NCBI RefSeq assembly: GCF_963921235.1
Contig: NC_086108.1
Coordinates: 34,970,001-35,034,000, forward strand
From: Mobula hypostoma
Lineage: Eukaryota
Direction of reading: 5' to 3'
Length of the DNA stretch: 64,000 nucleotides
Shown here: positions 3,851-60,006 of the stretch, piece after piece
Layout of the letters: the number at the start of each line of letters is the position of its first letter
How positions within the stretch are numbered: the first letter of the stretch is position 1
Notes under the pieces: model-generated
What the model saw: the letters and a program-made list of their open reading frames with translations, nothing else
Databases searched by the model: none
Told to the model about the DNA's origin: nothing
Translations under genes and position numbers: made by a program

Positions 3851-4469
3851 TTGGAACAAACCTATGCAGGATTCCACACAAATATCTCCTGAACATTTAC
3901 CACATTTCTTCTGTACATTTCCCTGATAACATCTGTTCCCAATTTATGCTTCCAAGTTCCTGCCTGATAGCCTCATATTTCCTCTTACTCCAATTAATAG
4001 ATGCATATTAGAGAAAACATTAGTAAGAAAGACCTGGAGATCAGAGCCAATGAAAGAAGGCAGATTCAGTTCCAAATCAGACTGCTGTGGGACTTGTAGC
4101 AGAACATGTAGGAAGTAACATTCCCAAACACCTGCAATTCTTACCCTAAATAGTAGAGGTCTAGGGTTTCATTACTGCTGTTGAAGTAACCTGGGTTAGT
4201 AACTGCAATGGATTTTGAAGAATGCATATACCAGAATCCTGGTGTAATGATCATGGAGGGAATGAACATTTAGGGTATTTCTGACCTGCTCATGTAATCA
4301 TAGTATTTATGTGGCTGATTCATTTGAGTTTTAGCAAAGTGTTAGTAATGACTCGGGATGGCAATTCAATGGAATATCAATCTCTGGTAGTTTCTTAACT
4401 AGAGATAGGGTTACTGGTCACTCAAATGTTATTTGCCAGTTATCAACTCATCACTGAATGTTCTACAGG

Positions 4470-4910
4470 CTATAGGATCACATGCACAACATTTTAGAGA
4501 TGGAGGGAGAGCAAGCAGATGTCTTAGTACATATTGGTACCAATGGCATAGGAACGAAAAGCAAAGAGGTCCTGAAAAGAGAATTTAGAGAGCTAGGTAG
4601 AAAGCTGAGGAGAAGGACCTCCTGGGTAGTAATTTCTGGATTGCTGCCTGTGCCACGTGCCAGTGAGGGTAGAAACACGATAATTTGGCAAATTAATGCA
4701 TAACTGATAAGCCGGTTCAGGGGGCAGCGCTTCAGGTTCTTGGATCATTGGGATCTCTTCTGGGGGAGGAATGGCCTGTTCAAAAGTGACGGGTTGCACC
4801 TGAACCCCAGGGGGACCAATATTCTCACAGGCAGGATGAGCCATGATTGAATGGCGGAGCAGGCTCAGAAGACCAAATGGCCTAATTCTGGCCCAATGTC
4901 TAATGGTGTT
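4470..4910 (+). mobile_element. CR1 ORF1 SGNH-esterase fragment joined to a CR1-type 3' end
   Basis: VLVHIGTN...VVISGLLPVPRAS...DGLHLN esterase motifs, typical of CR1 ORF1. Confidence 0.75.
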
Positions 4911-5998
4911 TACTGCAAAGAGTCATAAGCTGCTCCATTTTCATAAGAGTTACAAGTGGAAATGTTTCATGGTGGGGATGAATGCAAAGAGTGTTTGGAT
5001 CTTTATTATGGAAATGCAAGAAGGCTCCACCTGCTAAGAATTCACCCAAGTCTTAGAGACTGCAGATGACCCTACAATGGATGGCAATAATGAAACAGCT
5101 GAAGATTTTGCCTAGTATACTGCCCCAAGGGTTCTCATGTACAAGACTGAACGACTGGCATCCAACAACTACAACCCCCTTTGCTTTGTGCTAAATATGA
5201 CTTAAATCATTGGAGCGCTAACAGTTATGCAGAAAGGCAGAATTGTTCTCTGCCTGGAAATAAGGAGGCTAGATATGTTCAAAGTCACAAGAGTTTTTTT
5301 GTTATTGAGGAAAAGGAAAATGTTTCCAGTGACAAAAGGGTAGGTGACCCAAGGATAGATTTTAAACAATTGACTGTTAAAATAATTTTTCTCATGCAGA
5401 TGGAATTGACCTCTAATAAACTACTTGAATGAAAGGTGAAGGACTTTTAAACTTAATGGATAGCAATTTTAAATCACAGGTGAAAGAGTTGACTCCTCCA
5501 CCCCTCCTCCACATTGCTTCCTTTATTTCTAACAAGTTAGATGTACTAAAACTGGGTCCAGACACCAAAAAGTTTCTTTGGAGAAGTTCAGGACTGTCAT
5601 GCCTTTGGATACAGTTGAAATCTGTATTAGGAGCTCACAACCAACTTGTCTTATGCTAGTGAGTGAATAACAACCAATGACATTCAAAGGTTTTGTTAAT
5701 AGTAATAATATAACTTTCTATGATATTGTGATTTAAATGTGCTACATTGAATATTTTTGATTTTTTTTATAAATAAAGTATATTTTCAAATAAAAACAAG
5801 AGCCCAAAGGCTATTATTGCAAGTTGCTTTTGGGGTTTTACAAATAAATTGCCTAAGTAGCATTGCTCATGTAAGGTTCTATTCCAAACTGCCCTGCTGC
5901 CTTACTCAAGAGATCACCTTTACTCCCAGAAATATACTATATTTGTTATTATAAAAATAGAAGCAATATGCAACATTTTAAGGTAAATGTTTATTTAC

Positions 5999-6087
5999 CT
6001 GGCCTTTACCAGGGTTCTCCTTTGGGACAAGCAGACTCATAACTGGTCCAAACTTCTGACATTCTTCCCTCACATCTTCTACGACAT
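5999..6087 (-). CDS. UHMK1: UHMK1 exon 7 (UHM domain); final exon not found in window
   Basis: 89 nt, AG/GT. (D)VVEDVREECQKFGPVMSLLVPKENPGKGQ. Confidence 0.96.
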
Positions 6088-6138
6088 CTGTTTGGAAAAG
6101 AAATACTAGATTTTAAACAAAATTCAAATGCAGTAATA

Positions 6139-6614
6139 CACTCAGTGGCCATTTTATTAAGTACACCTGTACTTCTACTTGTTAATGTAAATATCTAATC
6201 AGCCAACCATGTAGTACAACTCAATGCATCAAAACATGCAGACAAGGTCTAGAGGTTCAGTTATTGTTCAGACCAAGTATCAGAATTGGGAAGAAAAGTG
6301 ATCTAAGTGACTTTGACTGTGAAATGATTGTTAGTGCCAGATGGGATGGTTTGAGTATCTCAGAAACTGCTGATCTCCTGGGATTTTCACACACAACAGT
6401 GTCCAGAGTTTAGAGACTGGTTCAAGATGACAGGAATGTGACCATAACTCAAATAACCATGCATTATAACAGTGGAGTATAGAAGAACATCTCTGAACAT
6501 TCAACACGCTGAACCTTGAAGTGAGTGGCTATGGCAGCAGAAGACAAACAAACATATACTCAGTAGGCACTTTATTAGTTACAGGGGGTACCTAATAAAA
6601 GTGCCCACTGAGTG
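6139..6614 (+). mobile_element. Non-autonomous Tc1 derivative
   Basis: TA|CACTCAGTGGCC...GCCCACTGAGTG|TA termini; internal remnant of the transposase N-terminus (GLSISETADLLGFSHTTVSRV). Confidence 0.85.
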
Positions 6615-6706
6615 TATCTTACAAATAACTAACCTTCATTTCTTTCTAATATTATTGAATTATTTAGAAACTACTTCCATAAGTCAAAAAGAAAGCACGA
6701 ACTGAC

Positions 6707-6805
6707 CTTCATATTCTTCTTCACTTTGAAGGTGGTTGTCATCAATAACATTTAGCAGTCTCAACACCGGGGTTGGAAGCATAACCAAATCTTCAATATG
6801 GGGGG
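6707..6805 (-). CDS. UHMK1: UHMK1 exon 6 (start of UHM domain)
   Basis: 99 nt, AG/GT. (A)PHIEDLVMLPTPVLRLLNVIDDNHLQSEEEYE. Confidence 0.96.
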
Positions 6806-7018
6806 CTAGTAATGAAAAATTATATGACAAAGATTTTATTTTGACTGTCGATATTATCACAGTTCAGGGTAAGGAGCTACATTTTTCTGATACATATAAG
6901 GAATTGCGATGGAGTAAAAGATTAAGATGCTTTGCTAAACTCATTCCAAGGGTTCTTCATAAAAGAAAAGGGGATGGAAGTAAAGGCATTTCTATCCCAA
7001 AAATATGACTGAACCTTA

Positions 7019-7726
7019 CGTAAGGGGGTTTCGATTTTTATGTTACTGCGGAGGCGAATTAAAATGGCGTCTTTGTTATGTTAATATGAGGAATGCGGCT
7101 TTGTTGTCTTAAACGCTGAGAAAGTTTGCGCTAGCAGCTTGTTGTGGTTTAGAGGGTGATAAGAAATACGTTATTAACCAATTGGGATAGTTGTTATGGT
7201 TTTGGTGTATTTGAAGATACTGATGCGCGGGGTTTTGGGGCAGAAGGCGGGAGAGCGAGACAGAGGATGGACGAGGTGCTGTGAGTCCGCTAATGGGGTC
7301 GGACCCCGAGCGGGACGTTCGGCAAGGAGACGGAGACGGAGACGGAGACGGATTCATGTGGAGCATCTGGTCGACCACCGTTGTTGGTCCCAGGCGGCCG
7401 GTCGAGGTGGTCCGAGGGGGTCGCAGGGTGAAGAAGAAGGTCCTTGAGCCCCAACGGGTTTTTTGTGCACGAAGAGATTGAACTTTGATAAGTGTGGCGC
7501 CTTTTATTTTCCTTTTATATTTTATTCTCTTTTAATTATATAGTTCCAGTAATATCTATAAACTGTAAATCATTTAATTGCATCTGGTGTCTTGTCTGTT
7601 ATTTGGGCGGGGTGAGGTACCTCACACAGCATCCACACAAACTAATTACCCAGTTTGGCGGGGCCGAGGCTGTTTCCCTAGACAACAGCGAGCCGAGCGA
7701 CCCTGAGGGTGGTCAGGGGGGCTACA
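7019..7726. mobile_element. Solo LTR (retrotransposon or ERV)
   Basis: GC/CpG-rich block in an AT-rich intron. Ends (C)GTAAG...CTACA (TG...CA with one change); imperfect 4-bp TSD CTTA/CTTG; internal (GGAGAC)n; no ORF. Confidence 0.65.
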
Positions 7727-8041
7727 CTTGCAGTGCAAACTAATGTGGATTTTCACACAACAGCGCCGATCAAACATGACACATTTGTAATTGCTCCTTA
7801 ATTGATGATAATTTAAATTACAACTTTCATTTATTTTTCTTATCAGGATAAGAATGGATGGCTAAGCTGTACAAACGATGAAAGGAACACAAAAATCTCA
7901 CATTTTCAGATTAAAATTTCAGTTGCAATCTAATTCATAATACAGTTGTATTAAAATGTAAATTCAATAGTTTTATGTACGCACATAGCACTGGTTTTGG
8001 ATTCTTACCAATATGCAATTCATAAAGGACACTGAACTTAC

Positions 8042-8118
8042 CAAAGGGAATACTGAAGAACGGGTTGTATAGAGCACTTTCTGCTGTTACTCTTTGTGCT
8101 GGGTCATCATGAAGCATA
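8042..8118 (-). CDS. UHMK1: UHMK1 exon 5
   Basis: 77 nt, AG/GT. MLHDDPAQRVTAESALYNPFFSIPF (kinase subdomain XI). Confidence 0.95.
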
Positions 8119-8571
8119 CTGTAATTTAAATAATGGAAGGTGAAAAATGTGGCAATGAAGTATTTTTTTATATAAACAAGTATCCTGCTGTGGGTTGAAT
8201 ATAATTATTTTCACCCATGCACAATGATGTACTTTAACATTTCTAATATCACTATAGAAGCTTTCTGAATCAATATCAGAACTGATTTTTTTTTAAATTT
8301 CAGTTACTTTCTATAATAAAGCATGATTATTATATAGGGATAGTGTTATCTTACAAAACACTTGCTTTAATAATATTAATATTCATCCAGTTAGCAAAGA
8401 CTTCCCACTCAGTTATGTTTGGAAATCTACTACAGGTGACTTCTGTGCTACAGTGTGGGGGCAGGAGGAAGGGACTGTGTTCTACAAAATGGTTTACATC
8501 ATGATTTTTTGTAACATGAAGGATCACATGCTTGCATCCAGAAAACTGAGTTTATTTACTTTTTCCATATA

Positions 8572-9990
8572 CAGGTTTCCCCCGCCATCCGAAGGCATAG
8601 CGTTCCTATGAAATGGTTCGTAAGCCAGAATGTCGTAAAGTGAAGAAGCAATTACCATTTATTTATATGGGAAAAATTTGTGAGCATTCGCAGACCCAAA
8701 AAATAACCTACCAAATCATGCCAAATAACACATAAAACCTAAAATAACAGTAACATATAGTGAAAGCAGGAATGATATGATAAATGCACAGCCTATATAA
8801 AGTAGAAATACTTTTCCACAATCATTGCCGAACTGTCCACCGTAGCGAAAATCTCACGCAAGTGCTCTCGGCAGAAACACTCTCTCCAGTAACCTTTAAG
8901 CTATGAAGCTGCCAAATCATACCAAATAACACATAAAAATACACAGCCTATATAAAGTAGAAATAAAGTATGTACAGTGTAGTATCACTTACCGGAATCG
9001 GGAAGACAGTGCCAAGCACACTGATGATGGTGTGTTAGGCTGAGTTGTCGGAGGTTGGGGTGGTGCAGTGGACCCCAACCTCCAGGCTGCCAACGCAATC
9101 GGCAATCGCCTCTGATCTGGGCCGACATTTACGTGCCGGGCGGCACCTAATTAATTAGCTTGTTTATTTCGGCTTTTTTCTTAAAGATGTGCTGGGTACA
9201 TCCCGGCTACCGCTGCACCGCTGCATTCTTTGCAGCCCGGTATCGGTCCGCGGCCCGGATGTTGGGGTGGGGTGGGACACTGGGGTGTCATGTCATCGTC
9301 GTAAGTTTCCATCAGGGCAGGCAGGTCATCTTCTTTTATGCCTAGCTGCCTCAATGTCGAAGGTCGAGGTTCGTCGTCTGCTGTGGCTGATGTGGAAGGC
9401 TTGAAAACAACAGTATGCTTGACTGCTCAGCCTCGCGCATTTTTCTATCATACAGTTCTTTGTATGCACTCAAACCATCCTGCAAATACGCCCTAAACCT
9501 AAGTACCCTTTCAAAATTAAAGTTGTATTTTTCTGCAATCATTGCAGTGAAAATCTCAAGCAGCTGCTTCACGTTCAGTTCCTGGACGACTTCACTTTCC
9601 GTCTGTTTGCTACTGCATTCGGTTTCGATTGTTATCCTTTCCTCTTTCAAATGCATCAGCTCTTCATCTATCAGTTCTTGGTCATGGGATGCCAAAACTT
9701 CTTCAACATCATCTTCGTCAACTTCCACAAGCCAAACTCACTTTGTCCTTACTTCGTTCACCACGATTGAAATGCTTAATTATGTCTAGTTTTACGCTAA
9801 GTGTAACACCCTTACGGGCTCTTTTAGGCTTTTCCGATACCTTAGAACTCATCTTGCTAACGAATGCTCTAAATAAATCAACATAATGCAAAGATGCTCA
9901 CAGGCAAGTGTTTAAGCAATGCAGGCTAGAATGCCGTTCCGGGGGAGGAGCTTGGCTGCATGGGGCGCGCGCTGCCTTTTTTCTAAATAG
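8572..9990 (-). mobile_element. Internally deleted Tigger/pogo-like transposon
   Basis: TA|CAGGTT terminus. Minus strand has a CENP-B-type start (MSSKVSEKPKRARKGVTLSVKLDIIKHFNRGERSKD) abutting the acidic Tigger C-terminus (EVDEDDVEEVLASHDQELIDEELMHL); DDE domain missing. Confidence 0.8.
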
Positions 9991-13962: not shown

Positions 13963-14926
13963 CTGCATAGAATATGCAAACAAAGACAGATTATGATTGA
14001 AACTTTGATTACCATATCCTAAAGTAGGTCAAGTAAGCAATTTCCAGATCCTTTCAAGCAAGTTACAGTACTTAATTTAGCTCCTGTAAAGCCCTCTGGA
14101 ACACTGTACTATAATAAAATGCATTTTGCTATTGGAAGATTTATTAATAAATTTACTTTAAGAAAACAACTGTCATATGCCAAAGAAACTGCTTACTCAA
14201 TAAATGGTCAACAACTTCTAACTTCTTGCCAAAATTAACTATAAAAGTTAAAGACAGAAAGCTACATTTTAAAGATTAATTCAATTTATTTTGCTTGATT
14301 GTTCATTTGTAACTACTTAAGATATTTGGCTATTAAAAGCTCAAGCAGTTGATTATGCTTATTATTTCATCCACGGCAACTTCCAATGATTATGTTTAAA
14401 ATTCAGACTTCTGTGAAAGGAATGAACCTTTAATTTTATTGACATAATTTATTTAACATGTAATCTCCCCATAAAAATAGCCAGTTTTTCAAAATTTCAT
14501 GCCTGCTCCTCCTGATATAAAGAAGTTTTCTAACTCGTCATTTACCTCACCAAAAACTACCAGAAATAGTTTTCTGCTTACTAAAACTGTATTGTGATTG
14601 TTGAGTCCTTCAAGATTTAAGCTGCATGTTAACTGCAATTCTGGCACCACCGCTTTCAAACTAGACACTTGATTTGTCTTCCTCAATGCTTACACACCTC
14701 CTTTACTTTAGAAAACTTACTAAAATGTCAGATCAGATAATCCTTTCAAATAAAGTCCAGAAGGAAATGAGCAGTATTACATTTATTTCAATAATATTCA
14801 TTTAAAGTATTAATATCATTGCAAGTTTTTGCTATTAAATAGTGAGCAAATGTTTAACAAACTATGCTTTTAAAAATATTTGAACAATTGTTGCTATATT
14901 CTTACTTAATGAACTATCTAATTTAC

Positions 14927-15219
14927 CTGATTTCCCTCCTGGAAACTAAGCCCAAAGTCTATGAGTTTAAAACATTCATCCTCTGCACTCCAGAGGATGT
15001 TACAAGGTTTGAGGTCTGCATGCACATAACCCTCATGGTGAATAAAAGCCAGTGCATTCAGAACATCCCGTGCACAATGCTGGATCATCCACATCGAATG
15101 CCCTCGATTAATGGAGTGTAGCAGCAACTCAGAGACACTGACATCCAACAGTTCAAGCAAAATGCAGTTGCAACGTTGGTTTGGGTAGGATAAGTTAGAA
15201 AATCTCCCATATAGAGTTA
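14927..15219 (-). CDS. UHMK1: UHMK1 exon 2 (catalytic loop and DFG)
   Basis: AG/GT bounded, 293 nt. (V)TLYGRF...LLELLDVSVSELLLHS...YVHADLKPCNILWSAEDECFKLIDFGLSFQEGNQ, in frame with exon 1. Confidence 0.97.
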
Positions 15220-15915
15220 CTGGAATATAAAGAAGAAATTATGGAATTAATCCACATGAAATGATAGAATATTCCTTTTCTGTTATTGTATTATCTTCGT
15301 CACAAGCTTCCAGTTCTGTGTTGCAAATGCCCGTTTTACTATCACACGAAATAACATTTTAGTGAATGTGTTTTTGGGAATCTTGGTCAATATCAAAGTA
15401 CAAATAACACACACTGATCTTGCAGTTTTAAAATGTATAATCAGATGTATGATACAAATGTTTTAACAGTGCTATTGAAGAAAAAGGGTATTACCTACCA
15501 TCTGCATTAACTTAAAAGATCCTGTGGCACAATTTTGAAGAGCAGGAACGATATCCTTAGTGCTCTAAACAATATTTTTAATATCATCAAAATATAACAC
15601 TGCAGATTGTCAGAGCTCATTGTGTGCAGATTGGCAGATGTTTTCTAGATTATGATTTCACTTCCAAAATACAATATTGGGACTTTTAGAAATGGATATG
15701 AAAGGTGGCATTTCTCTTTGCCTTCCACTGCTGTTTTAAGTACCAGATTTTAAAAATTTACAATGGATATCAGACTGAGAAAAATATGAAAACCATTGTG
15801 CAGAGATGGTAAATTAATTGCAAAATCTTGATCTTAGTTATTGAAATTTGCACTCAAAAGTTTTGACCTCATTTGAAGTGACTTAAACAATGGAGAAAGT
15901 CAGCTTGTTTTGTGT

Positions 15916-16986
15916 AAACAACAGGAATTCTGCAGATGCTGGAAATTCAAGCAACACGCATCGAAGTTGCTGGTGAATGCAGCAGGCCAAGCAGCATCTC
16001 TAGGAAGAGGTACCGTCAACGTTTCAGGCCGAGACCCTTCGTCAGGACTAACTGAAGGAAGAGTTAGTAAGAGATTTGAAAGTGGGAGGGGGAGGGGGAG
16101 ATCCAAAATGATAGGAGAAGACAGGAGGGGGAGGGATGGAGCCAAGAGCTGGACAGGTGATTGGCAAAAGGGATATGAGAGGATCATGGGACAAGAGGTC
16201 CGGGGAGAAAGACCCGGGGGGGGGACCCAGAGGATGGGCAAGAGGTATATTCAGAGGGACAGAGGGAGAAAAAGGAGAGTGAGAGAAAGAATGTGTGTAT
16301 AAAAATAAATAACGGATGGGGTATGAGGGGGAGGTGGGGCATTAACGGAAGTTACAGAAGTCAATGTTCATGCCATCAGGTTGGAGGCTACCCAGACGGA
16401 ATATAAGGTGTTGTTCCTCCAACCTGAGTGTGGCTTCATGTTTACAGTAGAGGAGGCCGTGGATAGACATGTCAGAATGGGAATGGGATGTGGAATTAAA
16501 ATGTGTGGCCACTGGGAGATCCTGCTTTCTCTGACAGACAGAGCGTAGGTGTTCAGCAAAGCGGTCTCCCAGTCTGCGTTGGGTCTCGCCAATATATAGA
16601 AGGCCACATCGGGAGCACCAGACGCAGTATATCACCCCAGCCGACTCACAGGTGAAGTGTCGCCTCACCTGGAAGGACTGTCTGGGGCCCTGAATGGTGA
16701 TAAGGGAGGAAGTGTAAGGGCATGTGTAGCACTTGTTCCGCTTACAAGGATAAGTGCCAGGAGGGAGATCAGTGGGGAGGGATGGGGGGAACGAATGGAC
16801 AAGGGAGTCGCGTAGGGAGCGATCCCTGTGGAAAGCAGACGGGGGGAGGGAAAGATGTGTTTAGTGGTGGGATCCCGTTGGAGGTGGCGGAAGTTACGGA
16901 GAATAATATGTTGGACCCGGAGGCTGTACCTCTTCCTAGAGATGCTGCCTTGGCCTGCTGCGTTCACCAGCAACTTTGATGTGTGT
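15916..16986 (-). mobile_element. 5'-truncated Penelope-like element (GIY-YIG, pLTR, inverted 5' piece)
   Basis: ORF 16342-16668 VIYCVWCSRCGLLYIGETQRRLGDRFAEH. 14-bp TSD AGCTTGTTTTGTGT at 15902-15915 and 16987-17000. Inverted pLTR piece at ~16924-16986. Confidence 0.92.
16014..16049 (-). ncRNA. Minimal type-I hammerhead ribozyme motif (GUU site)
   Basis: Minus strand agtc-CTGACGA-agg gtctcgg cct-GAAAC-GTT-gac: both core boxes intact, 3-bp stem II, palindromic ACGT in place of stem III. Confidence 0.8.
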
Positions 16987-17176
16987 AGCTTGTTTTGTGT
17001 TCTCATTACCAAGACTGCATAAACAACTTCCTTTGAAAAAGTCAATACACTACCAGGGAATAGCCAAACCACTGATTTAAATGTATAAATTATATTTCTA
17101 ACTCCAGTTCCTTTTTAAACTTATTTGCAAAACCACTTTTGTACTTCAGGGGGATTAGAAAGCTTCCTTTCCATCT

Positions 17177-17312
17177 CGCAAACATGAGGAAATCTGCAGA
17201 TGCTGGAATTTCAAGCAACACACATAAAAATTGCTGGCTAGGCAGCATCTATAGGAAGAGGTACAGTCGACGTTTCGGGCCGAGACCCATCATCAGGACT
17301 GACGAAGGGTCT
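17177..17312 (-). mobile_element. 136-bp solo Penelope pLTR insertion
   Basis: Same pLTR as 15916-16050; perfect 14-bp TSD CTTCCTTTCCATCT at 17163-17176 and 17313-17326. Confidence 0.9.
17264..17301 (-). ncRNA. Minimal type-I hammerhead ribozyme motif (GUC site)
   Basis: Minus strand cagtc-CTGATGA-tgggtctcggccc-GAAAC-GTC-gactg: 5-bp stem I, canonical core and GUC triplet. Confidence 0.8.
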
Positions 17313-20300
17313 CTTCCTTTCCATCTGATGTGTTTTCACGTGCCCAAAGTCACTTCACAGCTTTGTTATCAAATGTTACAAGTAATTTGCATCACAGAAT
17401 GAAATGAATAAACAATTGTTTCCTAAAGCTGGTCAAGAGTTTAAAATGTTAAGATGTTAAAAATTCAAAATGTTGAGGAACAGGAAAACCCCTCCTTTAC
17501 AAATAGGACCCTGTTGGTATTTTAAGTCGGTGGTGCATAAATTTACAGTCCAATCTGACAAAAATATTTGGCCACTGCAACACCATTAACTCCCATGGAG
17601 AGAAAATGGTTTTGAGGAGGCAGGCAAGTTTCAGGAAAACACTTAAAAAGCTGGAGGAACTCAGTGGGTCAGACTGCACCTATGGTGGCAAGGGCTAACC
17701 AATGCTTTGAGTTGACACCCTTCATCAGAACTTAAGTAATTTACATCCAGTTTCAGCTAATTTACTTTTTATAAATATTTAAAACTTTTAGAAATACCAT
17801 GATTCCTTAATTTAAAATATTTTCTGATCATTATTCATTCCTACAAATTCCCAAATATTTTCAACTTGATGCAAGTATGCAAGAATATGGGAGGCATAAA
17901 TGGTATAATCAAAGTATTTTTCTCATTTAGGGGTATTAAAACCAAGAGGGCATAGAGCTGAAGCAAGAGATCGAAATTTTTAAGAGGTCTGTTTTTACTA
18001 AGGGAATCAGACATAATTACAACATTTATGAGGCACTTAGACAGACACTTAAATAGGCAAGGCAGAGAAGGATGTTGTCCTGCAGGGAAAGGGGATTAGC
18101 ACAGATGAGCAAAACAGTTTGCATTGATGTGGTGGACCAAAGTGTTGATGTGTTATACAAATCTATACTCATACATGTACTCAGTGTTTTGCCAGCTTAA
18201 GTAACTGTCATAGCATTTCTGGAAGTAGAGCCCATCACGTATTGCAGGATAAACCTCTATCCAGGAGCCTGGCTTCAGGGAGAAAACCATTGCTGCAGCT
18301 ACTAGAGTGGAAACTCACATGGCAAATGAAAGGAAACATTGTGCAGGTCAATTGTACTAAATGACACTGTAATATTTGTATGCCTTTCTACTAAGCTGAG
18401 CCCAAGAGCTGGTAAATGAAGATGTCTTTGCTGTAATTCAATTATTTTTGGAAAGTTTACATATACCATAAAAAATTTAAATATGTCATTACTAAAGTTT
18501 AAGTAGCTATTTATCAACAGAGACAGCTCCATTTACTGGGTCTACCCATTTTTGAACCTATTTTAAACTTTGGATGAATTCATGTGTTAACATCTTTTGT
18601 TTCTGTAATATCTATTGTATCACTGGCCACGATGTTAAACTGAAGCCTAGTCATGTGGATATAAAAGATAATGTGACATTATCTGAAGGCAAGCAAGAGG
18701 TTTGCTGTCTTCCTTCCATTTATAATCATCCTTCAAACACATTAAATTGTAATGGGACAGCACACTTGTGCAGCTGTACAGATTCTGCTTCCCAGCTCCA
18801 ACGAAGAGTTCAGTCCTGGTCCCTAGTGTTATATGTGTGGAATTTCCACTCTCTGGGATGCTCCAATTTCATCAAAAAATCCATGGTTTGCTGGATTAAT
18901 TGTCTTCATCGTGTAGATGAGTGTAGAATAATGGGGGAGGGGAGAGAAAGAGGAATTGATGGGAATATGGGAAATAGGCTAGGATATGATTGGTGTAAAA
19001 AATTGGTGCTTGCTGGTCGGCACAGACTTGGTGAGCTGTCTTCATTACTATTAACCGGTCATTTGTCTCTCTTGCTGTTTATAGAATATAGCTGCATCTT
19101 CATAATGCCAATGGCCACTTTATTAGATATGAAAGCTTTTGGAGCATTCTGCACTTGAGGTAATGCTTGAAATGAAATTCTTCAAATGTTGTTTTGTTTT
19201 ACTGGAATCTAACCCTGAACCCAAATTAGATCTAATATATAAAGGCCTATTAAATTATTTCCCATTTTAATTTTATACAGGGGGTTCTAAACATACTATG
19301 CTCTGTAAATCAAATGATTTAGATTTCTAAGAAAGGAATGTCCTTTCAGATAAAATAATCAGTGCTGATGGGACTAATAGCAAGCAGTACTAGATAAACA
19401 CTTTACACTACACAGTATTAGATCTGCACTCTATGAATCATCCTGATCCAGTGCATTTCAAATTTTGGTGGTAAAATCAATATTTGAGTATAACTGATTT
19501 GATGAAATTACTTTACAATGTATTCACTATCTTTACTGTCCTGTTCAGAAATGCAGAGTTTAATTACAAGTTATGTTCATATTTTTAAACAACTAAAGGA
19601 CTTTTGGAAACCTAGTTAACTTTAACATTGCATACCAACAACAAATTCACATTTAATTCTACTTTTAAAGCACTTCAGTGGGGCTTTTTTATACAATACT
19701 GAGGGTCTACATTTTTGATCATTTGCATTTCTTTTAAAGCTCTGGATATCCAAGAGCTGTGTGGCTGCAGGTATAAATTGATCCACCCTTTTCAAATGGA
19801 AAAGGCTTGCCCGTCAGAGTGATGTATCGTCTGGGTAACTTGATCCGAAAAGACATTAGAATGTTCTTCTCTTATCTGTTGTTAAATTTCCTGGAACTTT
19901 TGCTACACTACCAAAAGTTACAAATTATATGCGCCTGCTTAAATAAAAATTGTAGCTGTATACGTTTATCCTCTATCATTCTTTTGACCTTCCTCAATAC
20001 TATAATACTAAGGAAACAAATTAATATAACAGAAGAGTAAAATAAAAATCTTAAATAAAAACAGAAGCTAGAAATATTCAGCAGGTCAGGAAACAACGCA
20101 GTTAATGTTTCAGAACAATTTTTTTATATCATAACTGGTGAAAGTTGAGGAGAAATATACATTAATATGCAGGAAGAAAGAACAAAAGGGGATGTCTGTA
20201 GAAGGGTATGAGACAAGACAGCACAAATGACAAAATGAGTTTACACTGCAAAATAAAAATATTGTACTTAATGACTTCCTGGTCCTTGTTCCCGTATTGT

Positions 20301-23300
20301 GTTGTACTTTATTTTGTAATTTTACATTTGTTTCAATACAGTTGCTTTTCCTTGATTTCATTTTCATTGATCCAATTATGTGCTTATTACATTCGATCCT
20401 TTGCTTTCCCAGGATATTTAACCTTTAATTTTAAAAGTAGCCACTTATACTTTCAGAATTACTTTCGCATAATCTTCTTTAATATTACTCAGCTCAATAA
20501 ACACATTATATGTGTGGTTTGATTATTTACTGGACTGCTCACTATGATATTGCAAGAACTACTGCATCATAATCATTACCACCAGTTTACTGAATCCACA
20601 TGGCACAACTTCCCAGGCTCTATCTAGTTACGCGTGGGACAAATACTGCCATCTGTGAGACAAATATTTTTATAATAGAAGAGAAATGGCACATGGAAAT
20701 GTAATGAAGTACCTTTTCTAGAGCATTAAATTACTGTCATTGTCAAAGATACAGTTTACCCAATCACATAATGATACTATAAAATAATTACTTCCTAATT
20801 GTGATTGCACTTATTATGGCTCAAATGGAAGAGACATTTGATTCAACCATAGAGGGAAAGGACCTCTTTTCAAGCCAGCTGTGACAATGGTAAAGTCAAA
20901 TTAAGTTCAAACATCTGATCAGAACAGAAGTCGTGATGTGCTGAATAAAAACTTGTTCTATTAATATAGTGAGCAACAAATGAAGAATCCAAAATGGAGA
21001 AGACAGTAAACAATGTGGAAATTAACAATGGAAAAAAACATTTTTACAGAAGCATAGTGTTTAAAACTAAACATTAAAATATTAGTTGCATTATTTCAGT
21101 TCCTATCATAAGTTCCTCTGAAGCCAAGGTCTTTCGGATAGAGCATTTTGATCAGAGTGTGGGTATGATACAAAATCTTCAAATGTTGTTCTAGCTATGC
21201 TTTCATATTTACCAAGAGGACAGTGTTCTCCCTGTTCTGACCTTCTACAAATAATTGTAACATCACTGCAATGTCACAAGGTATGTATAAGATATGATAC
21301 AATTGTAAAATACATGTTACTCTCCTCCATGCATTTTTCCAAGTGCTTTGATAACAAGGGCCAAGAAAAAAAATTGCGTACTAAAAAATCCTCATTGCAT
21401 AGAAATAGAAATGAGTAACCAGTATAGTGATTGTGCAAAACATCTGATGTGATAGACTGGGATGCGTGTTAATCAGCACACAATTTGTTTGTTCATCAAT
21501 TTATTTTCATACAATCCTCTTCAGCCTTCAACACCTGCAGTGATCACAATATATTTTTAATTGAAATTATACACACTGAAACAGTTGTGCACACAAATAA
21601 TTGGAAAATTAAAACTTCTTTTGCCACATGAACTTGTTTTCAGGTTGATATAAAAGATATTTTAATATTCAAACAGAAATGCAATTCACTCTGTTGAACT
21701 GTCTAAAAATACATTATTATTAGGTACACCTAATCACTAGTTTAGTAACAGTACAGCACTCCAATCATTTTGCATTACATGGACTTTTTTTTTATCCTAA
21801 TTGTTTTCTTTCTCGTAAAAGTTGTTTAAGTTCTTCTTGTGAATCATCTGTCTTTGATGCTATATTCCTAAGATGCTGCTGCAGGTAACATTTTTTCATT
21901 GCTCCTGTGCATACATGTACTTGTGCAAATGACTATGTACTCAACTTTTACTTTTGATATTCTGTATTTAAGCTGGTTCCTGGTTTTCTACATTACTCCT
22001 ACACTTAAAGTATTGTTTGCCGGAAAGGTGCAAAAGAAATTGAGTATTTTTTCCCCATTTAGAAAAATTGGCTACAGGCCTCTCAAAAAGGTAGGGCAAC
22101 AAACTTAAGATTGTTTTTTTTTGAATAAGTATGCCTTCCCCCAGGGATATTCACATGTGCACTGGTTTCCTGGTGTAAATTCATTCTAGAAAGTTTCTCA
22201 TCACTTACATTTTCATGATTCCAAACGACAAGGAACATGTGTTTCATCCATTTATGTCTGTACTGAATATGCTTAATGTTAACTGCAATATATCTTGACA
22301 GTGATAATTTATGTATACTTCTCATTGAGCTATTTGAATACCTGTAATACTAATGGCTGTACAGTTGCCTTCTTCAAATGGACACTGATTTGGAAAAAAA
22401 AGGCAAGGAGCAATTAGATTACAGTCCACATGATATGCAAATTCTAATTTACCACCTCATTTTTATTCAACGTAATCTAGTTTTAGTAGCATTACATACT
22501 GCAGTGCATCAAGATTATGCTTAGTCTACCTGTACACTCAGATCATTGTAAAACACTTGGTAGCCAATAAAGCTCTTCTAAAGTAGAGCTATGTTTAAAC
22601 ACAGCAAAAGAATATGCAAACAACTGGCAATTATTAACTTATTTTGGATACTGACTGGGCGTAAATACTGAAACATTTCCCTGAAATTGTGCCACAGCAT
22701 ATTTTATATTAACCCAATGGAGCAGATGGGGTCTGATATAAATTTGTTTGTATAGCGGCATCTGTGATAGGCTGAAACTTACTAATTGTGTTACATAAAT
22801 TTAATGATCCAATTGCTGCAGTATCATTTCTTTCCATTTATGCCTTGTTCTGTCATTTCTGCAAATAGACCCAAACAGAAACATCTGATCATAAAGTATG
22901 AGGTGAAGATATGTAATGGTCTAACACCCATTACTAAATGGAAAATGACAGAAATGAACCAAATCAGCATCTGTAAAGAAACACACATTAACAATGCGGG
23001 ACAGTGATTTGGGAATTAGGTCCTTCACACCTACACTTTAGTTTTGATTGGCAGGGTGGGTGGTGAATTTGGCAGCAACCCACTATAGGCTTTTCGCACG
23101 TACAGAGCGTGGGTTGCTATCAAGTTCACACAAAAAGATGGGCATTATTCCACACTTGTTGGTGTCAAAATGCAGTCGCTGAGAATGTACGTGGAGCAGA
23201 GAAGGGCAACACAAGCTGCAAGGACAAGTGGTTGGGGATGGCGAACGGCAGGCGGAACTGAGGATGCAGCATCAGTGGTTAGGTGTGGATGGGGGTAATA

Positions 23301-23419
23301 TGCATGGGCCGGGGGCAATGTATAAAAGGGTGAGTGTGGGTGGGGTGGGATAGCGTATGTGTGTGTGTGGGGGGGGGGAAGAAAACAGAAGGGTAGCGTG
23401 TACCTAGGGTTGTGGGGAG

Positions 23420-24160
23420 GGCAATACATACTGGGACGGGGTGGCGTGTACCGGGGAACGTCCTTGCCCACAGGTGCCCCGGGCTCCGCTCCCACCAGTC
23501 CCTCGGATATTTACCGATGTTCCTGTGGCCCTGCAAGTCCTCCAGGACCCCGCTCTCCGTCAGGAAGCCGTAGTCTGACTTGGTGTCATGAACGAATTGT
23601 TTGACGGCGGCCCGCGCCGTCCCCGACGTCACACCATAGACAGCGGCCGAGGAGCCTTTGCCGAGGCATCGCTGCGCCCGCCACAGGCGCCCATTGGCCT
23701 GGAAGACTCCCGACGGCGGAAGAACATTGCAGCCCCGCTCCGGCTCTGAGTACCAACCGCGCGCCGCTCCGCCACCGCCGCCGCCACAACCACCGCGGTA
23801 TCTGGGTCTCGGCCTCGACCCGCCATACATCGCCATGACGTGGCGGCGGCTCGGACGAACTCGCGATCGGCCTTGGTGCGACAGCCTGACTGTAAACAAG
23901 GCCGTGGGTCCGGGGCCGACTCCGCCGCCACCCGTTCGATCGATCGGGCCTACACGGTCACGTCATCGCCACGCCCCTTTTCAGAGCCCTACAAACAAAC
24001 GCATGACGTAATTAACTCCGGGTCTCTGATTGGGTTATTCAGGGTCCGGAAAACCGAGTCTCATCGAGCGAGACGAGTGTCGAGTTCGTGAAGCCTCTGA
24101 AGTTCACCGGAGGTTCGACACTTCAATGAAAGGGCGACCCGTCCCGGGCGGTCACATGAG
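23420..24160 (-). promoter_or_regulatory. CpG island / UHMK1 promoter
   Basis: Sharp GC/CpG rise over exon 1 and upstream. CRE-like TCACGTCA (~23958) and TGACGTAA (~24005); ATTGG (CCAAT on minus) at ~24029. Confidence 0.8.
23515..23836 (-). CDS. UHMK1: UHMK1 (KIS) Ser/Thr kinase, coding exon 1
   Basis: Translates MAMYGG...GRLWRAQRCLGKGSSAAVYGV...AVKQF...DYGFLTESGVLEDLQGHRNI. Gly-loop and Lys resemble the KIS N-lobe. Phase-1 GTAAAT donor; lies in a CpG island. Confidence 0.93.
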
Positions 24161-24773
24161 TGACAAAGCTGCCCCAGTTAGGAGCTTTAATGCCCATATA
24201 CATATGTTTTTTAATGTTTCTTTAAACAGGGCACTTTTTATTCTCCGTGGAGGAAAAACATCGGAAAGTTACTTCGCAGTGGCTAATTGGTGGCCAGTAG
24301 CACCTCTCACACACAAAACAAAAAATAACTTTACTGGAACTGCTTAACCAAGTCACTCTGCCTTGAAGCAGTTCCGCACCGTTAAAATTTTCCACTGGGT
24401 AGATACATCTATCAGTAAAATTTTCCATTTTGTTTAATGGTGTTCCATTTTTATTCCCTTAAAATTAACGTTGATATTCAAATTATTTTGCTAACTTAAT
24501 TTATTATGCCCTTAATCTTTTTGTGAAACTTAAGTAATTATCTCTATACATCTCCCAATATAGTTCTTAAGTTTTATTTTGCATACCCTAAATTTATTAC
24601 AAAGTCTTTTAAATTTACCTTTTATTTTTACAAATCAATTTTGTATTCATTGACTATTTATAACCACTATACCGTAACTTGATATGCTTTTTAATCATGC
24701 CTAACAACTTTGGTGTTAATTTTTTTAATTCTCTAACTCTCCTTTTTCTAGTTTAAAGTCAGATCACCAGCCT

Positions 24774-25731
24774 CCAACGGGATCCCACCGCTAAGCACAT
24801 CTGTCCCTCCAGCCCCCCACCCCGCTTTCCGCAGGGATCGCTCCCTACGCGACTCCCTTGTCCATTCGTCCCTACTATCCCTTCCCACCGATCTCCCTCC
24901 CGGCACTTGTAAGCGGAACAAGTGCTATACATGACCTTACACTTCCTCCCTTACCACCATTCAGGGCCCCAGACAGTCCTTCCAGGTGAGGCGACACTTC
25001 CCTTGTGAGTCGGCTGGGGTAATATACTGCGTCCAGTGCTCCCAATGCGGCCTTCTATATATTGGCGAGACCCGACGCAGACTGGGAGACCTTTGCTGAA
25101 CACCTACGCTCTGTCCGCCAGAGAAAGCAGGATCTCCCAGTGGCCACACATTGTAATTCCACGTCCCATTCCCATTCTGATATGTCTATCCACGGCCTCC
25201 TCGACTATCAAGATGAAGCCACACTCAGGTTGGAGGAACACCACCTTGTATTCCGTCTGGGTAGCCTCCAACCTGATGGCATGAACATTGACTTCTCCAA
25301 CTTCCGTTAATGCCCCACCTCCCCCTGGTACCCCATCCATTATTTATTTATTATGATTATTTTCTCTCTCTCCTTTCTCTCCCTCTGTCCCTCTCACTAT
25401 ACTCCTTGCCTATCCTCTGGGCTTTCCCCCTCCCCCTTTCTTTCTCCCTAGGCCTCCCATCCCATGATCCTCTCATATCCCTTTTGCCAATCAACTTTAC
25501 AGCTCTTAGCTCCATCCCTCCCCCTCCTGTCTTCTCTTATCATTTCTGATCTCCCCCTCCCTCTCCCACTTTCAAATCTCTTACTATCTCTTCTTTCAGT
25601 TTGTCCTGATAAAGGGTCTCGGCCTGAAACATGGACTGTACCTCTTCCTATAGATGCTGCCTGGCCTGCTGCGTTCACCAGCAATTTTTATGTGTTGCTT
25701 GAAATTCCAGCATCTGCAGATTTCCTTGTGT
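24774..25731 (+). mobile_element. 5'-truncated Penelope-like element between the two promoters
   Basis: GIY-YIG remnant (VIYCVQCSQCGLLYIGETRRRLG); pLTR with mutated hammerhead at 25602-25637 (CTGATAA, GAAACATG); TSD TCACCA(G/A)CCT. Confidence 0.9.
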
Positions 25732-26164
25732 TCACCAACCTTACTCATCCTTTTCTCTTTCATCCAACAGTAAAGATAATTAATAACCATAACTGGGTAA
25801 TTGTTTGCTTCCAAAAGGAAGCCAATAGTTGTGTACACTTAAGAACAATGGGCCCATATCCTCTATATAGTTGTGTGGATTCATTTCTATATATTATTTG
25901 TGATATTTCAATGTTTTAAATATCAAAATAGACTACAGATCACACGTACTTTGATATTCCTCTTTATGTTATTTTAATAAGAACATTAGTTCAACTATTT
26001 TCATTATTAATTCTCAAATATATTTAATTTCAATTTAACATTATTCTCCAATATGTATAAAACATGAACATACTTTTGGCGAAAACATTCTTCTGCCATT
26101 CTGCAATGATCTCATCAGTTAATGATCTTCTTTTGTTTTTTTTCCTTTTATAATACCAACCACC

Positions 26165-44229: not shown

Positions 44230-44318
<89 letters not shown>

Positions 44319-44739
44319 TCCCTCTCCCTCTCCCTCTCCCTCTCCCTCTCCCTCTCCCTCTCCCTCTCCCTCTCCCTCTCCCTCTCCCTCTCCCTCTCCC
44401 TCTCCCTCTCCCTCTCCCTCTCCCTCTCCCTCTCCCTCTCCCTCTCCCTCTCCCTCTCCCTCTCCCTCTCCCTCTCCCTCTCCCTCTCCCTCTCCCTCTC
44501 CCTCTCCCTCTCCCTCTCCCTCTCCCTCTCCCTCTCCCTCTCCCTCTCCCTCTCCCTCTCCCTCTCCCTCTCCCTCTCCCTCTCCCTCTCCCTCTCCCTC
44601 TCCCTCTCCCTCTCCCTCTCCCTCTCCCTCTCCCTCTCCCTCTCCCTCTCCCTCTCCCTCTCCCTCTCCCTCTCCCTCTCCCTCTCCCTCTCCCTCTCTC
44701 CCTCTCCCTCTCTCCCTCTCCCTCTCTCCCTCTCCCTCT

Positions 44740-44824
<85 letters not shown>

Positions 44825-45420
44825 CTCCCTCTCCCTCTCTCCCTCTCCCTCTCTCCCTCTCCCTCTCTCCTCTCTCCTCTCTCCCTCTCCCTCTCCCTCT
44901 CTCCCTCTCCCTCTCTCCCTCTCCCTCTCCCTCTCTCCCTCTCCCTCTCTCCCTCTCCCTCTCTCTCTCCCCCTCTCTCCCCCTCTCTCCCTCTCTCCCG
45001 CAGCAATGAGAGTGGTACACCAGCAGCTCGCTGTTGCCATCTGCCACATTGCTTCTCAGAGTCCCCCAACTCAAGGACCAAAAGGGTCTCACTCACCATT
45101 GAGAGAGAGGATCACTCAAGTGCAGGGGCGTACTGTCTCGATGTTTCAGTCTCCGAGGTGCCTCAGTTAGTGACATGGGCAAGAAAACAGGTCGTTCACA
45201 TCTTCCAGGCCGCATCTGGAGATATCAAAATGCCAGGCCACACAGTGAGTCCGAGAGCAAGAACCCATCGCCCATGGAGAACCCTGGTTTGAGCTGTATA
45301 TCATGGATTCCGACAGAACCCCAGCCTCCTTGAGAAGAAAAGAAACGTGAGTAAAGAGGAGTAAGCTGTTTCATGGACGAACTTGAAGCAATCACCTGGG
45401 TTTGCAAGAACCATCTTTTC
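43915..45420 (-). mobile_element. Non-autonomous LINE-derived element hosting the long microsatellite
   Basis: Minus strand starts AAGATGG and ends with a GT-rich 3' region and (TTGAAC)-like tail. Confidence 0.45.
44233..44999. repeat. ~770-bp pure polypyrimidine compound microsatellite (TC)n/(TCTCCC)n
   Basis: Directly visible: only C and T on the plus strand. Confidence 0.99.
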
Positions 45421-47713: not shown

Positions 47714-49739
47714 GCTGGCTGCACACGAATTAAGGCGTGCTGAGTGCCGGGGAGTTGGAAAAGAGCATGGAGGCTGCAACTGCTGAGTTGATGAAGAAAA
47801 TATCCTGTAGGATGAACAGATCGACGGATAGTGAAAGTGAGTTTGAGATGGAGGAATGGAGTGAAGAGAGTGGGGAAAGGAAACCGAGGTATGAGATGTC
47901 AAACTCTAAGGAGTCAGGGGACAAACAAAATAGGATAGCAAAACAATGGAAAGAAGATGAGATTAAAGCAATTATAGCACTGAGTGAAGACAGAGCATCT
48001 TTTGGTGAATGGAACCTGATTCATTTGATGAAGATAATCAACAAATTTATAGGTGAAGTCAAAAGACCGAAGATTTGATGAAATGGATTGCTATTAGTGA
48101 TTTATTGGGATGGTGCTCAACAAGGCAAAGTGATAAGATTAAATAAAATAGATGGCAAAAAAGTATAATGCTCAATACCCAACAATAGAAAGTGGACTAG
48201 AGGAGTTATTCTGGGGATACCAACAAAAGTTACTATGGATGAGATTAACAGAACATAAAAGCAAAAATTATTGAGGCCAAACGTTTGAAAGTTATAAGAA
48301 ATGGGAAATAGTGTGATAGTTTATCGGTTATGATCAACTTTGATGAAGAGAGATTGCCGACTAAAGTTTATTCAGGGTATATGTGTTATGAGGTCAGAAT
48401 ATATATACCACCGCCTTTAAGATGCTTTGAATGTCAGAAATTCGGGCATATTGCGGCGGTCTGCAGAGGGAAACAAAGATGTGGAAGATGCGCTGGAGAA
48501 CATGAATATGGGAAATGTGAGGCGGGAGCTAGGCTGAAATGCTGCAATTGTGGTGAGGAACATAGTGCAGCTTATCAAGGGTGCATTATTAGCAAGAAAG
48601 AAGCTGAGATACAACATGTAAAAGTAACTCAAGGGATCAGTTATGTAGAGGCAGTGAAAGTATTTGCTGGAAAAAAGAAGGCTATCAAGCAAACAAATAC
48701 AGGGAATAATAAACCGGTGAACTGTGAGGGTTGTAATATAAATAAGGACAGACTAATTATGAGTAAGAAGGATTTCGTACTGTTTATGGTAGATGCAATT
48801 AACTGTTCAGCGTAAACAGACAAAAGAACCGAAAAAATTAAAATTATAGTCAAATCTGCCAAAAAATATCTTGGTATTACAGGGCTTAGGTGGGAAGCAG
48901 TCAAAGATGTGCTGAATGGAGGATCAAACTGTTCACAGGCAGGAGATGCGAAAAAATTAATGGCTGTGTGTGTATATATATACACATATACACACACATA
49001 TATATTACAAGGGAATGCAAGGAGTATTATTGCAAATGATCAAGAATTTACGAAATATGTACCGGAATTTAAGGAAAAAAACCCTCAGATTTTATGTTAC
49101 AAGAAACATGGTTGAAACCCAGGGTAAATGTGCGGAACTCCATCAACAAATAGAAGTACTCAATAAGAACAACTGTGAGTTGGAAAGAGATTGGACGAAA
49201 CGGTACTGCATTTAAAGGAGACGATTTCTGAAAAAGATGCTTGTTGTCAAAAATTCAGTGACATGGAAAACAGATTAAAAATGGAGGAACTTATTCCAAA
49301 GTTACAAAAGGAAAAAGGAATTTGCAAAGTGAATGATCTACATTTGGATTATAAAATGAAAACATGGAAACAATTGAGGAAGAATTTCAAGATCTCAATA
49401 AACAACTACAGGCTTTGATTCAAGAAAAGGAAAATTTGGAAATAGCAGATAGACTTAGAAAACAACAATTTTAAATGTTAAGCATGCGATAATGAATAAT
49501 CTCAAGCAAGAAGCTTTTAGTTTTACAAATGATTCAAATGAAATTAATGTAATTTGAGGCAATGCAATTATTTGGAAACCACATGACAAAATTTGAGAAG
49601 GAAAACAATCTGCGGCATTGCTATTTAATGAGCACATACAGCATTTGCAAGCGGAATTATAATTGATTCTATATCCTGCAGAGGGCAGTAATACGCCTAG
49701 ATGTGTCTAAGCTGCCGGAAATAGAAGAAGAAGAAGTCG
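47714..49739 (+). mobile_element. Nimb/I-group LINE derivative: ORF1, ORF2 stub, foreign insert, 3' end
   Basis: ORF1 with three CCHC knuckles (CFECQKFGHIAAVC, CGRCAGEH, CCNCGEEHSAAYQGC); ORF2 stub ILQGNARSIIAN...QETWLKP; (GAA)n tail; TSD TCCCAAGTCC at 47704-47713 and 49740-49749. Confidence 0.85.
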
Positions 49740-59832: not shown

Positions 59833-60006
59833 CCCCCCCCCTTTCAAATCTCTTACTATCTCTTCTTTCAGTTAGTCCTGACGAAGGGTCTCGGCCCGAT
59901 ACGTTGATTGTACCTCTTCCTGTAGGTGCTGCCTGGCCTGCTGCGTGCACCAACAATTTTTACGTGTGTTGCTTGAAATTCCAGCATCTGCAGATTTCCT
60001 TGTGTT
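59833..60006 (+). mobile_element. Solo Penelope pLTR with mutated hammerhead (59874-59909)
   Basis: agtc-CTGACGA-agggtctcggccc-GATAC-GTT-gatt: GAAA box changed to GATA. Confidence 0.85.

Follow-up and report, generated by a model that had tools for sequence, protein, structure and literature searches.

Two minimal hammerhead motifs in intron 1 of a kinase gene of Mobula hypostoma are likely inert passengers of recent Penelope-like insertions

The window, i.e., the whole 64,000-nt stretch of Mobula hypostoma DNA analyzed here (NC_086108.1, positions 34,970,001 to 35,034,000), carries on its minus strand a gene whose exons match Pfam Pkinase, which identifies the host as a Ser/Thr kinase. In the Atlas, exon 2 matches only generic kinase clusters, and the solved structures are those of other kinases. 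The exon at 5999-6088 is similar to the UHM of U2AF65 (E = 9e-4), with RRM_1 reached only at an E of 0.25. This combination of a kinase and a UHM fits UHMK1, which we presume to be the gene. The relevant part of the gene is given below, with positions counted from the first letter of the window.

23515 to 23836, minus strand: coding part of host kinase exon 1, with the ATG at 23836 (from the translation) and the donor joint at 23515 in all four RNA data sets
15220 to 23514, minus strand: intron 1, 8,295 nt, GT..AG, joint 15219-23515
14926 to 15219, minus strand: host kinase exon 2 (Pfam Pkinase, E = 2.9e-14; splice joint)

The joint between 23515 and 15219 was present in four of four RNA data sets from two studies, at contig depths of 337, 111, 267, and 146. 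We treat these data sets as RNA because they contain spliced joints (the RNA label of the tool itself is a guess), and we examined them as contigs, which cannot show RNA ends. The contig joints place both hammerhead motifs described below inside intron 1 in the sense orientation. The sequence-only reading that preceded this analysis was therefore right to assign them to one pre-mRNA, and its UHMK1 fits a host of kinase-UHM type.

The window has other features of its own. An intronic contig at 20090-21537 on the minus strand (depth, 12 to 80) starts at 21532-21535 in all four RNA data sets; a CAG at 21537-21535 directly precedes this start, and an AATAAA lies at 20313. This contig may represent an alternative terminal exon that lies before both hammerheads in the transcript, and a joint linking it to exon 1 was absent among the joints listed. 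A (TCTCCC)n array of about 123 copies occupies 44233-44987. By the look of the translations, we take 1180-1933 to be a Tc1-like transposase remnant, 48312-48815 to be a zinc-knuckle frame like that of LINE ORF1, and many stretches elsewhere in the window to be CR1/L2-like reverse transcriptase (RT) remnants.

The two motifs, here called A and B, are laid out as follows.

17264 to 17301, minus strand: minimal hammerhead A, with the 5′ strand of stem I at 17301-17297, CUGAUGA at 17296-17290, the extra U at 17289, stem II at 17288-17277, GAAAC at 17276-17272, GUC at 17271-17269, and the 3′ strand of stem I at 17268-17264
16013 to 16050, minus strand: minimal hammerhead B, with CUGACGA at 16045-16039, stem II closed by G.U, GAAAC, GUU at 16020-16018, and a private U-to-G change at 16014 in the 3′ strand of stem I

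The family pattern is matched with 0 mismatches by the core of A (17272-17296) and by that of B (16021-16045), both on the minus strand; 100 shuffles give an expectation of 0.00. The predicted scissile nucleotides are 17269 (GUC) in A and 16018 (GUU) in B, a spacing of 1,251 nt, which confirms the earlier placement of two minus-strand motifs about 1.25 kb apart with GUU at 16.0 kb and GUC at 17.3 kb. Both copies have the CUGANGA and GAAA-N..N-UH core boxes and, as had been noticed, the palindrome ACGU in place of stem III; at this palindrome four pairs between A and B are possible, as is nested pairing. The additional nucleotide that separates positions 9 and 10.1 is U in A and A in B (A in 149 of 151 sampled copies), and the 10.1-11.1 pair is G-C in A and G.U in B. 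We considered CpG decay as the origin of the G.U pair and dropped the idea, as G.U is the commoner family variant (104/151). Helix I has five pairs in A; in B it has three, followed by the mismatch from the private change. The G at 16014 occurs in 1 of the 151 copies, B itself, and GUU occurs in 13.

Among 121 other copies, 95 have GUC together with a stem I of at least four pairs, and 1 has U17 together with a short stem. GUU is described as a usable site, GUC and GUA as the fastest, and mismatches near the core as poorly tolerated (PMC3138052). Judging from its GUU and its stem I mismatch, copy B is a decayed member of the family. The description of both motifs as intact thus holds for their boxes; it does not extend to the broken stem I and G.U closing pair of B or to A as a whole, which carries a 5′ micro-inversion complementary to its own core. 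An Rfam scan of the window at E values up to 5 gave five weak matches, none of them a hammerhead and none within either motif; the minimal hammerhead form is not scored by Rfam. Two further, decayed copies of the family lie in the window at 25606 (+) and 59878 (+), the former in a stretch (24771-25735, plus strand) with broken boxes and one change in CUGANGA and ACGU, and the latter in a stretch (59833-60006, plus strand) with a broken box and one change in GAAA.

Each motif sits in an insertion with its own target-site duplication, and unique host DNA of about 190 bp separates the two insertions.

17313 to 17326, minus strand: target-site duplication of insertion A, upstream copy, 14 bp (single copy in the empty site of organism C)
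17177 to 17312, minus strand: insertion A, 136 bp long, a solo pLTR stub that keeps its tail, carries a 5′ micro-inversion, and lacks ~13 nt internally
17299 to 17312, minus strand: inverted arm of A, 14 nt, the exact reverse complement of the family core
17163 to 17176, minus strand: target-site duplication of insertion A, downstream copy
16987 to 17000, minus strand: target-site duplication of insertion B, upstream copy, 14 bp (single copy in organism C)
15916 to 16986, minus strand: insertion B, a 1,071-bp, 5′-truncated, 5′-inverted Penelope-like copy with endonuclease end, 3′ UTR, and pLTR with tail
16926 to 16986, minus strand: 5′ arm of B, inverted, with 92.5% complementarity to 15948-16013 over a 67-nt match
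16342 to 16860, minus strand: C-x4-C-x2-C linker and GIY-YIG endonuclease remnant without RT, 92 to 95% identical to many genomic copies
15902 to 15915, minus strand: target-site duplication of insertion B, downstream copy

Two relatives were informative about age. In organism C, one 833-nt contig joins 15634-15901, 16987-17162, and 17313-17626 without gaps; both sites are empty, with one copy of the duplication in each, and the flanks differ at 43 letters in ~760. The separate 14-bp duplications and the two empty sites establish A and B as independent insertions, as had been proposed. In organism B, which is ~1.5% diverged, a contig runs 41 nt into insertion A, so that A is present. Contigs of organism B run 21 to 22 nt into insertion B, below the 31-nt criterion, and the same pattern is seen in the window's own organism; insertion B is probably present there too. 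Compared with 51 other long copies, insertion B has a median identity of 93.2% (maximum, 95.6%). A and B are both recent, and neither is conserved, the orthologous sites in organism C being empty. The presence of A in a close relative fits a neutral and a mildly useful insertion alike.

To place the motifs among known elements, we compared them with a longer genomic copy (L111) that holds RT and, at the C terminus, a GIY-YIG endonuclease in one 735-amino-acid frame, with the same hammerhead downstream. Both Pfam matches in that frame are below the cutoffs (RVT_1, E = 0.0019; GIY-YIG, E = 0.0032). Insertion B keeps the endonuclease end only, and its remnant at 16342-16860 (E = 2.7e-4, 21.6 bits) is just under the cutoff of 22.6; the GIY-YIG remnant that the sequence-only reading had seen between the motifs is thus there. 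The motif lies ~300 bp past the RT-endonuclease frame in L111 and in B, in keeping with the claim that Penelope pLTRs carry these minimal hammerheads. A C-x4-C-x2-C linker precedes the endonuclease in both frames, and a C-x(2-5)-C-x2-C linker is described as a mark of Neptune and Nematis elements (PMC8557442). The motifs are minimal hammerheads of a Penelope-like retrotransposon with a Neptune-type linker, a kind published in 2014; the Neptune type is a tentative assignment from this linker, which Nematis has too. According to PMC8557442, truncation, 5′ inversion, and a tail of 30 to 40 bp are standard in insertions of Penelope-like elements (PLEs). The endonuclease-bearing Neptune-type PLEs treated there resemble the present family in the order of RT and GIY-YIG in one frame (as in L111), the linker, 5′ truncation, the inverted 5′ copy, and the optional tail of 30 to 40 bp.

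Given how abundant the family is, we investigated how often two copies would meet on one strand. The 28-nt motif common to A and B has 30,017 + 30,128 = 60,145 exact matches in 3.48 Gb, a reversed control has 0 genome-wide, and the fully intact 35-nt form has 6,102. Sixty evenly spaced 10-kb stretches (600 kb) contained 10 strict, 19 box-intact, and 42 loose copies, which agrees with the genome count. Our figures for pair frequency come from loci that were sampled and from a Poisson estimate, the latter giving an expectation of 677 same-strand strict pairs within 1.3 kb. We also sampled 4-kb stretches around 60 matches, drawn from the 77 that stand 11th to 87th in the list and that all lie within the first 4 Mb of one contig; the other 17 overlapped or were already taken. 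Within 1.95 kb of these 60 loci, a box-intact same-strand neighbor was found at 3, a loose same-strand neighbor at 4, and an opposite-strand neighbor at 15. The first 40 loci yielded seven same-strand pairs within 1.5 kb, at eight loci. In one of these seven pairs (L034/L035; L034:1505 and L034:2793), both copies match the intact 35-nt pattern on the same strand, 1,288 bp apart, and apparently come from separate insertions. The unbiased 600-kb sample had 0 box-intact same-strand pairs among its 19 copies and 1 loose pair among its 42. Same-strand pairs are therefore a small share of copies, yet they number in the hundreds to thousands, and with so many copies in the genome the pairing of A with B does not exceed what chance would give.

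Folding was used to compare A and B with other copies; the model has no tertiary contacts or pseudoknots, so its energies are comparative only. In both local and 1,396-nt folds, the inverted arm of A (17299-17312) is paired, with a probability near 1, to the CUGAUGA and the stem II 5′ strand of the same copy; the 14-nt inversion is thus predicted to lock the core of A. This micro-inversion is a short form of a family pattern, inverted 5′ arms occurring in 44 of the 85 pieces whose start is close to the hammerhead. Among the 121 other copies, 100 are more accessible than A and 89 more accessible than B. The cost of forming a double hammerhead is 46.4 kcal/mol for A/B versus 21.8, 28.2, 23.5, and 20.6 kcal/mol for four control pairs; as a bare 42-nt dimer, A+B reaches −10.5 kcal/mol (L111 homodimer, −9.9; L034, −15.1; A+A, −18.7). 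Overall, the A-B pair is poorer than most pairs of this motif class. In the local fold of B, the family's upstream pyrimidine run (16046-16064, minus strand) is predicted to pair with the hammerhead core, a pairing that could act as a built-in off-state in the 3′ pLTR.

The ends of genomic pieces carry information on the RNA from which they were copied. The 3′ ends of pLTR pieces lie at about +93 and +130 relative to the core; 86 of 186 pieces reach at least +120, and none ends at +26 to +31 (blast ends are approximate). Across L001 to L173 and the window, the 5′ ends accumulate from about −17 to +7, a short way upstream of the core, with no such pile-up at the cut site (+29). Most of these loci were selected for an intact core; in the small unbiased subset of 16 pieces, 10 start at −20 to +9 and 0 at +20 to +39 (again with approximate blast ends). 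The pile-up may mark the element's transcription start or a stall of RT, and the ends as a whole suggest an uncut template RNA. The same counts (0/16 and 0/186) led us to reject a cleaved template as the reason why the inverted arm of B ends at the cut site. Two other putative signs of cleavage were also set aside: the low contig depth at 15320-15663 (0 to 3.4) relative to the 5′ part of the intron, as contigs cannot show cuts, and joints such as 16003-17254 that might be read as a circle, as they come from DNA runs, have sides of <30 nt, and involve other repeat copies.

In our reading, which we hold at a probability of roughly 0.88, the pair is inert debris and no working RNA switch, the motifs being passengers of two recent Penelope-like insertions. 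A high-copy Penelope-like retrotransposon inserted twice, recently and in sense, into intron 1, each copy bringing a hammerhead with it. For both copies, the template was presumably element RNA that had not been cleaved, with reverse transcription primed ~100 nt beyond the cut site of the hammerhead, truncated early, and accompanied by inversion. Since the core of A is predicted to fold onto its own inverted arm and B has a decayed stem I and cleavage site, ordinary splicing likely takes out the intron before it can be cut. Neither copy would then be under selection, and cleavage in vivo would be negligible, although normal splicing is compatible with a small cleaved fraction.

The principal competitor, which we consider unlikely, is a one-sided leak in which the catalytic half of B would pair with the ACGUC and stem I strand of A and occasionally cut once after 17269, perhaps aided by the element protein and by the inverted arms of B, which would make the loop shorter; a small part of the pre-mRNA would be cut, and the gene would be little affected. 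Copy A keeps GUC and can form a five-pair stem I with the 5′ strand of B, and its hairpin ends at ~17282, leaving its substrate strand outside in the fold. With the long arms set aside, this cut costs 17.6 kcal/mol, within the range of eight control cuts (14.6 to 24.4 kcal/mol), so that in the model cleavage once at 17269 is no less plausible than cleavage at other pairs. The family is also abundant in the RNA data sets, and the PLE hammerhead of the green anole is reported to cut when its protein is present (PMC11167929). However, the cost rises to 50.6 kcal/mol in the unconstrained fold, where the 3′ strand of A pairs elsewhere, B closes stem II with G.U and is less open than most copies, and genomic copies have no pile of ends at the cut site.

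The sequence-only reading went further and proposed an in-cis double hammerhead that makes both cuts and releases a 1,251-nt RNA with the GIY-YIG remnant, possibly circularized; on the present evidence, this is very improbable. The geometry is right, with both motifs on one strand and nested pairing possible at the palindromic ACGU, and action of minimal hammerheads as dimers has been published (PMC4209133). Release is nonetheless unlikely because both cuts are needed and the cut at B is costly: it depends on the core of A (predicted to be locked), a GUU site, and a three-pair stem I, and at 26.9 kcal/mol with the long arms set aside it scored worse than all eight control cuts. The full dimer costs 67.4 kcal/mol in a longer construct, or 29.4 kcal/mol with both inverted arms blocked. 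Moreover, the intron is spliced normally, the released fragment would have no coding capacity for RT, organism C lacks both insertions, and published relatives are described as weak as dimers (PMC4209133) or protein dependent (PMC11167929). About equally improbable is an effect that bypasses ribozyme chemistry, with the 67-bp inverted-repeat duplex of B acting on the host transcript through RNA editing, nuclear retention, or a splicing delay. The duplex (16926-16992 with 15948-16013) is predicted at a probability near 1, and the nested model cannot score it together with the ribozyme helices; yet inverted 5′ arms are routine in this family, splicing is normal, and the A-to-G differences in the RNA contigs occur also in DNA runs and come from other copies.

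Reading the pair as debris agrees with much of what is reported for related motifs. Cervera and De la Pena (PMC4209133) defined the minimal PLE hammerhead in 2014 and reported it in fish from Xena, Poseidon, and Neptune elements, mostly as solo copies; tandem and opposite-strand pairs were reported too, with hits filtered for proximity. The present motifs share with theirs the boxes, the extra nucleotide between 9 and 10.1, the short helix I, the palindrome for helix III, the pLTR location, and the prevalence of solo truncated copies. Unlike in their elements, the two copies here come from separate insertions and not from two pLTRs of one element; in the present pair, B has decayed, and an inversion is predicted to lock A. 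Our strict count of 60,145 compares with 4,000 to 9,000 in coelacanth and Xenopus in that study, although the search methods differ. In that study, a single motif showed no cleavage, and dimers and trimers cleaved weakly. The earlier statement was that such motifs cleave efficiently mainly as dimers; dimer action is published (for the dimer claim, Lunse et al. 2017, taken from PMC6765202), with weak cleavage even of close dimers in PMC4209133.

In the anole Poseidon element PAc, the hammerhead stayed uncut without the element protein and cut with it, uncut RNA was the main template, and no RNA-seq reads began or ended at the cut site (Frangieh et al. 2024 [PMC11167929]). Our family is alike in having two 3′ ends ~35 nt apart downstream of the hammerhead and inserted copies that point to uncut RNA; it differs in clade, and the PAc hammerhead was assayed, while the case made here is built on sequence and folding. 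Non-LTR retrozymes also carry two type I hammerheads of PLE origin in the same orientation (bioRxiv 10.64898/2026.07.22.740005; see also PMC7229834). We rejected a retrozyme reading of the locus, which has no tandem repeat unit and consists of two insertions with separate duplications and unique host DNA between them. The same 2026 preprint reports a depletion of retrozymes in introns of Xenopus, a finding compatible with some activity of intact tandem units.

Searches by title and abstract returned no literature on the locus or on a ribozyme in this gene, with most subscription journals outside their scope. Amniote intronic hammerheads and CPEB3 HDV-like ribozymes are conserved and low in copy number. 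Such conserved intronic ribozymes possibly act on pre-mRNA (PMC6765202), and A and B resemble them in being ribozyme motifs in sense in a host intron. In contrast, A and B are recent insertions among tens of thousands of copies, and a relative whose flanks are ~6% diverged lacks both.

As found, the pair is of little import: same-strand pairs of this motif class, known since 2014, number in the hundreds to thousands, and intact pairs such as L034/L035 are a better place than A/B to ask whether a host intron is cut. Were cleavage of the pre-mRNA true, it would supply in vivo evidence for the PLE minimal hammerhead, described as lacking in PMC4209133, and would mean that transposon scraps can combine into a cutter of a host transcript. 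It is conceivable, if quite improbable, that A and B form an accidental split ribozyme, with B as the catalytic half, A as the GUC site, the inverted arms joining them, and the element protein triggering a single cut in intron 1. If so, an active retrotransposon would lower expression from the kinase gene, and host introns in this lineage would, through hundreds of such chance pairs, serve as sensors of Penelope activity.
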